NCBI GenBank assembly: GCA_964482735.1
Contig: CAYZYV010000003.1
Span: 1 to 61,096, forward strand
Direction: 5' to 3'
Length of the DNA stretch: 61,096 nt
From: an uncultured Candidatus Saccharibacteria bacterium
GTDB lineage: Bacteria > Patescibacteriota > Minisyncoccia > Phycocordibacterales > UBA9973
Shown here: one piece after another, positions 35,160-35,233 of the stretch
Layout of the letters: every line of letters starts with the position of its first letter
Position numbering within the stretch: the stretch's first letter is position 1
Notes under the pieces: generated by a model
What the model saw: the letters and a program-made list of their open reading frames with translations, nothing else
Told to the model about the DNA's origin: nothing
Database searches by the model: none
Program-made: the position numbers and the translations under genes

Positions 35160-35233
35160 GGTGATATAGTTCAGCAGATAGAACGTCTCCCTTTTCAAGG
35201 AGAAGGTCGCGAGTTTGAATCTCGTTATCACCA
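35160..35233 (+). tRNA. tRNA-like gene inside the intron with an 8-nt anticodon loop (Glu/Lys-like)
   Basis: Acceptor GGTGATA/TATCACC, D-stem GTTC/GAAC, TCTCC-CTTTTCAA-GGAGA, T-loop TTTGAAT (non-canonical); no CCA. Confidence 0.65.

Follow-up and report, generated by a model that had tools for sequence, protein, structure and literature searches.

tRNA-like elements with differing anticodon loops in a group I intron of the 23S rRNA gene of a Patescibacteria bacterium

A tRNA-like sequence with eight instead of seven nucleotides in its anticodon loop, lying inside a 23S rRNA gene, raises the question of whether it decodes or serves another purpose. The earlier note on this DNA placed the sequence in an intron and offered two options, a frameshifting tRNA or a tRNA whose stems are kept for RNA processing. 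We examined the sequence in its setting; the window is the whole stretch of DNA that was analysed (61,096 nucleotides), and coordinates are window positions unless stated otherwise. The host (G000) is a Patescibacteria (CPR) bacterium. Its genome comprises 630,376 bases in five contigs with 34% G+C and is 99.89% complete based on marker genes.

The 23S rRNA gene (32321..35881, + strand) is the sole copy in the genome and is interrupted by an intron; it matches the Rfam model LSU_rRNA_bacteria with 2300 bits over model positions 1-2925. The 5S gene lies downstream (36136-36243, Rfam 70.3 bits), and the 16S gene is unlinked, on another contig (C2:140497-142038). The intron occupies 35016..35589 (+ strand, 574 nt). 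Exon matches of the relatives end at window 35015 (query 136) and restart at 35590 (query 711). In an alignment with the E. coli 23S sequence the break (marked by a slash) falls at ...GAACGT/CGTGAGACAG, in RNA form ...GAACGU/CGUGAGACAG, that is after U2593 and before C2594, in helix 93 of the peptidyl-transferase region; the E. coli numbering of the site was anchored on the known A2602. The 3' border reads ...AGATG/CGTGAGACAG, and the insertion has a terminal G, sits at a known rRNA intron site and leaves the exons intact.

The catalytic core of a group I intron (P2 to P9 region) was recognized at 35322..35542 (+ strand) by the Rfam model Intron_gpI (RF00028; 38.3 bits, E 3.6e-8, model positions 1-253), and this core is 84% identical to that of the closest relative, G190. 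The score falls short of the gathering score of 50 bits, which 3 of 27 homologous introns reach (59.8, 57.6 and 50.0 bits); an E value <= 0.001 for the same model was obtained in 17 of the 28 intron sources searched. There is no ORF in the intron. A survey of CPR bacteria includes position 2593 among their group I/LAGLIDADG sites (PMC11270868). Based on this evidence for a group I intron at 35016-35589, the description of the element as intronic is confirmed. Because the gene is the only 23S copy and the site is in the peptidyl-transferase region, we infer that the intron must be spliced out of the pre-23S RNA. At the 5' splice site the minimum free energy (MFE) helix pairs the splice-site U with A; by eye, an alternative 7-bp pairing, AAACCGU/GUGGUUU, gives U.G.

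Two relatives of the host, G017 (L004) and G001 (L005), have more insertions in the 23S gene, of ~840 nt at a position matching window 34922/34923, and G017 has an additional one further downstream, at a position matching window 35753; domain V of these genomes is thus broken two or three times. Elsewhere in the window, a ribosomal protein L10 leader (29236-29374) scores 44.3 bits against a gathering score of 44 and lies upstream of an ORF at 29382-29876.

P1 and its extension form an outer helix of 46 bp that runs from pair (35004, 35310) to pair (35051, 35261). Its 5' strand (35004..35051, + strand) takes in 12 bases from the end of the exon and 36 from the start of the intron; P1 and the 5' arm of the extension lie here. 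Its 3' strand (35261..35310, + strand) consists of the extension's 3' arm together with the internal guide region, which contains ACAGTTTGAACC. This guide sequence, complementary to 23S helix 93, is present in 7 of 7 introns inspected. The MFE fold has a z score of -8.0, and 0 of 100 shuffled sequences fold as well. The helix ends in a loop of 209 nt, hereafter the bay, which holds a leader, a tRNA-like element (t1), an 11-nt spacer, a second tRNA-like element (t2), the trailer ACGAAAAA and a hairpin. The hairpin (35241..35260, + strand) follows the 'ACGAA' trailer and is predicted to fold with 8 bp as GAGCGAAT-TTTT-ATTCGCTC; an equivalent hairpin lies 3' of the tRNA-like element in 3 of 3 relatives that carry one.

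The element with the enlarged loop is t2 (35160..35233, + strand), a Lys(UUU)-like element with the 8-nt loop CUUUUCAA at 35191-35198. It is laid out as GGTGATA-TA-GTTC-AGCAGATA-GAAC-G-TCTCC-CTTTTCAA-GGAGA-AGGTC-GCGAG-TTTGAAT-CTCGT-TATCACC-A. Sequence and stem parsing agree with the perfect 7-bp acceptor and 5-bp anticodon stems around 8 nt described previously: the acceptor stem GGTGATA/TATCACC has 7 of 7 pairs, the anticodon stem TCTCC/GGAGA has 5 of 5, and 21 of 21 pairs are standard overall. The anticodon loop CTTTTCAA (35191-35198) is accompanied by the D-loop AGCAGATA and the T-loop TTTGAAT. The Rfam tRNA model (RF00005) scores t2 at 62.6 bits (gathering score 29, E 3.6e-13) and inserts one loop base to do so. 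With default settings ARAGORN shifts the stem, accepts two mismatches, forces a 7-nt loop and calls Glu(ttc); in permissive mode it finds the perfect stem and a 4-base anticodon, tttc. Where a working decoder has a 7-nt anticodon loop with U33 and a purine at position 37, t2 has 8 nt and, with U33 fixed, a C after three U.

With the D-loop numbered in the standard way as A14 G15 C16 A17 G18 A19 U20 A21, and the T-loop as U54 U55 U56 G57 A58 A59 U60, t2 retains U8, A14, G18, U54, U55, A58 and G53-C61, and its elbow pair G19:C56 reads as replaced by A19:U56. This two-sided swap looks like upkeep of the L-shape rather than decay. The odd D- and T-loops had been interpreted as decay in the earlier note; the loop sequences it gave are right, but "decayed" is too strong for an element that, in this numbering, keeps G18 and U55 and has the A19:U56 swap.

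The closest counterparts of t2 are lysine tRNAs. In tRNA-Lys(UUU) genes of the family a CUUUUAA loop sits on a CTCC/GGAG stem and is followed by the variable loop AGGTC, and t2 is identical but for an extra C after U36. Its D arm is of the Lys/Val/Ala type, not the Glu type, and its discriminator is A73, as in the tRNA-Lys genes of the family. The element had been described as one insertion away from both Glu and Lys; the likeness to Lys holds, since anticodon arm and variable loop match tRNA-Lys(UUU), and that to Glu does not. A search of 400 family genomes, including 92 of the same genus, returned no close homologue of t2, its top hits being ordinary tRNA genes with 76-84% partial identity. 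Five of these genes were inspected; four are tRNA-Lys(UUU) and one is tRNA-Gly. In other families of the order, too, t2 matches Lys genes. In G190, the closest relative, hairpins take the place of t2. Judged by these comparisons, t2 is a diverged Lys-like element that arose in the host lineage only. A phage origin was considered and rejected, as there were just three weak matches, to phage tRNA-Arg genes (80-89% identity over 49-74% of the query).

Is the TTTT run of the loop real? The eighth base could in principle stem from a miscounted homopolymer or a chimeric contig, and misassembly is known in this region, where a public contig of a relative (L056) is chimeric. Against this, contigs of two other studies are identical to the window over the whole intron or its 5' 337 nt: a DNA run of a different study (X8) yields a 626-nt contig over 34987-35612 with 0 differences and 0 gaps, and a run of a third study (X10, 2016) yields a contig over 34994-35352, which spans the 5' 337 nt of the intron, with 0 differences. 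An insertion or deletion is reported in none of the 4 runs aligned, in a comparison of contigs, not reads, which were taken from assemblies distinct from the probable source of the window. Furthermore, 14 DNA runs from 9 studies contain at least 78% of the sampled words of 34700-35900. A sequencing or assembly artefact is thus scarcely credible. The TTTT run, which the earlier note had wished to see verified, is present in the contigs of two independent DNA runs (X8 and X10); it is real, and a homopolymer artefact is rejected. In contig L056 (JAGVVH010000398.1, ~2390-2740) 23S exon sequence abuts the middle part of an intronic tRNA-like element of the G017 type. The most likely explanation for this contig, which is binned as Bacteroidetes, is a Patescibacteria fragment that was mis-binned and chimerically assembled.

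The other element, t1 (35073..35149, + strand), is Ala(UGC)-like with the loop CUUGCAA and scores 58.8 bits with the Rfam tRNA model; ARAGORN detects it only at a relaxed threshold. An A1.A72 mismatch leaves it with 6 of 7 acceptor pairs, and in the 7-bp register there is no G3.U70. It had been characterized as an atypical Ala-like neighbour with a 6-bp acceptor and a G3.U70-like wobble; the six acceptor pairs agree with this, and the wobble has no counterpart in the 7-bp register.

The host has 40 other tRNA genes by ARAGORN, including Ala(UGC), Glu(UUC), Glu(CUC), Lys(UUU) and Lys(CUU), and t1 and t2 are ~63-72% identical to the host tRNA genes. The intronic tRNA-like elements are spare relative to this set. 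CCA is encoded neither in the host tRNA genes nor in the intronic elements. The genome encodes RNase P RNA (130 bits), a nucleotidyltransferase of the CCA-adding type and RNase III. No clear RNase Z was found in the genome (best match to TIGR02651 27 bits against a cut-off of 293), so that the 3'-end step proposed below is without an identified enzyme.

Some further observations concern the tRNA genes themselves. Most host tRNA genes have 'CA' directly after the discriminator base. Outside the window, at C1:116286-116360, ARAGORN reports a tRNA-Ile with the anticodon UAU. Because only two CAU tRNAs were found, AUA may be decoded by this UAU tRNA and not by a lysidine-modified CAU tRNA. In G022 a standalone tRNA-Ala-like gene (G022:C93 (L009), 588-661, minus strand) has a 6-nt anticodon loop (TTGCAA) according to ARAGORN. 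It is syntenic with C3:105-107 kb of the host genome, lies outside the rRNA genes and could be a real oddity or an assembly error.

The comparison of orthologous introns that the earlier note had proposed was made across the family. Of 400 same-family genomes drawn, 264 match the region, and the site-2593 intron was retrieved from 27 of them (7 best loci and 20 picked toward the same genus and longer inserts, a non-random sample); the family tallies include two unpublished genomes (G314 and G339), on which no individual statement depends. The introns compared are 320-581 nt long. Among the 28 introns at the site, tRNA-like elements are present in 4: two in the host and one each in G190, G017 and G001, with Rfam and ARAGORN in agreement. 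The elements of the relatives score 57.9 (G190), 59.0 (G017) and 44.0 bits (G001), all above the gathering score of 29. Relaxed ARAGORN calls in G025, G351, G318, G179 and G001 (reverse strand) were unsupported by Rfam and were set aside.

The four genomes share the same bay. In each, the trailer A-CG-(A/T)A stands in place of CCA and is followed by the hairpin, and the outer helix is 42-46 bp long. The leader TGTTC[A/T]TTTT is found in three of the four; that of G190 is shorter (TGTTTT). P1 of relatives without cargo, such as G026 and G020, closes in a short loop. A strict pattern for the long P1 extension retrieved 3 of 401 family genomes and missed G001, which has an exon variant. With a pattern for the 3' arm we obtained 2 contigs from a metagenome collection, both G017-type, and 4 records from a genome collection, namely G017, G190, G001 and one chimeric partial G017-type contig. 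The pattern GGTTCGA..CC...ACGAA, which spans only part of the module variety, was searched in 250 genomes of the order and discarded, as 11 of 11 matches were ordinary tRNA-Pro genes outside the 23S gene.

The five elements, from four related genomes, are alike in fold and different in their anticodon loops. Many pairs have changed on both sides, and 104 of the 105 in the five cloverleaves are standard. The loops are CUUGCAA (t1), CUAACAA (G190), CUGAUGC, the 8-nt UUAACCAA and the 8-nt loop of t2, and 2 of 5 elements thus have 8-nt loops. The CUAACAA loop has A34, which is unusual for bacteria, and CUGAUGC has G37 and C38, unlike the Ile loop of the family. Homologous elements of the bay therefore carry UGC, AAC, GAU and a 4-base AACC, in place of the conserved anticodon expected of a decoder.

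Pairwise comparisons gave the same picture. Between the G017 and G001 elements there are 5 two-sided pair changes and 0 broken pairs; the acceptor, D and T arms are homologous and the anticodon arms are unrelated. Between t1 and its G190 homologue there are 7 two-sided pair changes, in introns whose cores are 84-91% identical. The D arm, anticodon stem and variable loop of these two are almost the same (1 of 19 flanking positions differs), and 3 of 3 anticodon positions differ (UGC versus AAC). Based on the same pair of genomes, t1 is 62% and the intron core 84% identical. G017 and its metagenome variants show 0-1 cargo differences and 2-9 core differences, too few for a comparison of rates. 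To judge from these alignments, the fold is kept and the anticodon loop is not, and no single decoding role would fit the homologous elements. As in t-elements, a tRNA-like fold is thus kept within a longer transcript and its anticodon is not.

We now consider which explanations could account for this pattern. The elements could be working tRNAs released from the rRNA transcript. In that case t1 would be an additional tRNA-Ala and t2 a +1 frameshift or quadruplet decoder, acting either through UUUC on GAAA or by slippage of an expanded Lys loop on AAA-G. Several features of t2 would suit such a role: its 8-nt loop is closed by a perfect stem and has U33 and, on its 3' side, A-A; its tRNA score is high; its tertiary positions are intact; and its discriminator is A73, as in the tRNA-Lys of the family. 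The canonical Ala loop of t1 would suit it as well. The +1 frameshift suppressors sufD, sufB2 and sufG are laboratory alleles of essential tRNA genes with 8-nt anticodon loops, and sufG derives from tRNA-Lys. Like them, t2 has one extra anticodon-loop base on a normal stem; unlike them, it is a spare intron copy that is unconserved and shares its bay with elements whose loops are unrelated. An expanded loop kept by selection, the mark of a suppressor, is not what we found, as t2 is absent from the closest relative and from 400 family genomes. Among the bay homologues, one has A34 in its anticodon, one has G37 and C38 in its loop and one has a further 8-nt loop; t1 has A1.A72 and no G3.U70 in the 7-bp register, and the host tRNA set is already complete. 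Widespread frameshifted genes are also unlikely, given that the genome is 99.89% complete on marker genes. A decoding role is therefore very improbable, and the frameshifting option of the earlier note is unsupported, with normal Glu and Lys tRNAs in the host and no close homologue of t2 in the family genomes.

A second group of explanations does without decoding. The elements may be neutral cargo, that is tRNA copies that recombined into the P1 loop and drift as pseudogenes, with cloverleaves still visible as the captures are recent or repeated. The patchy occurrence (4 of 28 introns), the confinement of t2 to one species and the resemblance of the t1 and t2 anticodon arms to tRNA-Ala and tRNA-Lys genes of the family are consistent with this, and the non-canonical loops and A1.A72 resemble early decay. 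The acceptor and T stems of t1 and the G190 element are so different, at ~84-91% core identity, that replacement is plausible in preference to stepwise change. However, although a third or more of the positions differ between the elements, 104 of 105 pairs are intact; at least 12 pairs have changed on both sides, and one is a mismatch. The homology of leader, trailer and hairpin in the four genomes favours a single ancestral insertion that persisted through speciation. The flanking arms of G001 and the host co-change on both sides, and t2 has the A19/U56 double change. On balance, we regard neutral drift as rather unlikely. Alternatively, the modules could aid intron folding or recruit a tRNA-binding protein, such as an aminoacyl-tRNA synthetase, for splicing. 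CYT-18 and LeuRS assist splicing of mitochondrial group I introns in this manner, and small-genome hosts are short of many RNA chaperones. The fold is under selection, and the modules sit on P1, adjoining the splice site. Yet 24 of 28 homologous introns are without a module, and in some of these a short loop caps P1; introns with modules have either one or two; and pairing of the anticodon loops with intron loops revealed nothing specific. We consider an accessory folding or protein-recruiting domain improbable. A kissing loop was specifically rejected: the complement of the t2 loop, TGAAAAG, occurs twice in the host intron but also in G190, which lacks t2, and the other anticodon loops pair no better with their own intron than with foreign ones. 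A bacterial Y RNA (YrlA, RF02553) was dismissed as well, at 18.8 bits and E 0.35 against a threshold of 69 bits, with no TROVE (Ro60) or RtcB match in the genome.

The position, fold, conservation pattern and spare status of t1 and t2 are matters of observation. The explanation that we favour, and to which we give about an even chance, is that these tRNA-like modules do not decode and are retained for their fold, probably as handles for RNase P and 3'-end processing, with an anticodon loop that drifts freely. If selection acts on the cloverleaf and not on the anticodon loop, the 8-nt loop would be a tolerated extra C in a Lys(UUU)-type loop and not an adaptation to quadruplet decoding. The earlier option of stems kept for RNA processing and not decoding fits the comparison, in which three congeners keep the cloverleaf and have different anticodon loops.

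How such handles might work can be outlined as follows. Selection would maintain the cloverleaf and, by extension, the L-shape of the modules. RNase P would cut at their 5' ends, in the pre-rRNA or in the excised intron, and a 3'-end activity would cut after the discriminator base. A cut at the modules would split the intron within the P1 loop. Until splicing, the two halves could stay joined through the 46-bp helix, which might alternatively serve as a site for RNase III. The new ends may then allow release and faster turnover of an intron RNA that is complementary to the helix-93 region of 23S rRNA. Excised intron that remains bound to 50S subunits is reportedly toxic. A more specific version, possible but decidedly tentative, is that the tip of P1 serves as a cargo bay in which tRNA-like modules can be exchanged, and that these modules turn the intron into a substrate of tRNA processing: RNase P would cut within it, the 46-bp helix would keep the halves joined so that splicing takes place in effect in trans, and rapid destruction of the intron would follow.

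Several points count against the processing-handle explanation. The module is rare, present in 4 of 28 introns examined and in 3 of 401 family genomes by the strict pattern, so it is not needed for splicing and any benefit would be small or lineage-specific. The faster divergence of t1 than of the core between the host and G190 (62% versus 84% identity) also fits weak constraint or recombinational replacement. The sample is small, with five elements from four kin genomes, and there is no clear RNase Z, at 27 bits against 293.

Contigs from RNA libraries were also compared with the locus. Neither tRNA-sized ends nor the exact exon joint, 35015-to-35590, is present in those of X15 and X16. Joints of 35020-to-35587 and 35024-to-35583 in these libraries have short sides and 92% likeness and may be from other organisms. 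One X16 contig (35457-35604) spans the 3' splice site, and one X15 contig matches 35221-35415; each could represent precursor, excised intron or DNA carry-over. Because 39 different bases replace the single base at 35353 in the X15 contig, within the P2 region (window 35352-35354), we conclude that a strain variant of the intron with an extra hairpin exists in another sample.

Some features of the locus have counterparts in known systems. The t-elements of plant mitochondria are tRNA-like and non-decoding and contribute to the formation of 5' and 3' ends via tRNA-processing enzymes (Forner et al. 2007, PMC1920247). The elements described here are similar in being non-decoding tRNA-like sequences embedded in longer transcripts. 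Unlike the t-elements, which that paper places beside organelle mRNAs (PMC1920247), they are within a bacterial rRNA group I intron, have four-arm cloverleaves that score like real tRNAs, and are putative processing substrates. In fungal mitochondria of the Ophiostomatales, group I introns can contain a tRNA gene; examples are a tRNA-Arg in a cox1 intron and, in atp6-i1, a tRNA-Ile that follows a LAGLIDADG ORF (PMC7902536). The host intron likewise carries tRNA-type cargo. Those are described as ordinary annotated mitochondrial tRNAs in introns of protein genes with an endonuclease ORF (PMC7902536), in contrast to the non-canonical loops, bacterial host, 23S rRNA gene and lack of an intron ORF seen here. 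The CPR introns at 23S position 2593 surveyed by Tsurumaki et al. (2024, PMC11270868) are from the same phylum-level group and share the site (23IS12) and intron class; the cargo described in that survey is LAGLIDADG ORFs, and its main text makes no mention of tRNA. The same survey notes that the intervening sequences (IVSs) of bacterial 23S rRNA are removed by RNase III, with known IVSs in rRNA helices 25 and 45 (PMC11270868). The present locus resembles them in that the pre-rRNA has a long protruding helix of 46 bp with almost perfect pairing, and the genome encodes RNase III. IVSs, however, are in the rRNA itself and are without tRNA-like sequences, whereas this helix belongs to an intron and bears tRNA-like RNAs.

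No description of tRNA-like cargo in a bacterial rRNA intron was found in the limited set of papers searched. Endonuclease genes and, in fungal mitochondria, an occasional tRNA gene are known as cargo of group I introns; what appears to be new is the presence in a bacterial rRNA intron of full-cloverleaf tRNA look-alikes whose fold is kept and whose anticodon loop is free. In Patescibacteria, tRNA finders will call such elements Glu, Val or Ile tRNAs or quadruplet decoders, and they should be left out of tRNA gene counts and of claims of expanded decoding. If the modules are RNase P handles, they would be a natural bacterial counterpart to organellar t-elements and a new means for the host or the intron to govern what becomes of a ribozyme located in the ribosome's catalytic centre. 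Should the more specific, exchangeable-module version be true, a ribozyme otherwise able to re-bind the peptidyl-transferase region would have a built-in self-destruct handle, and 23S maturation would be linked to tRNA processing in an ultra-small bacterium.
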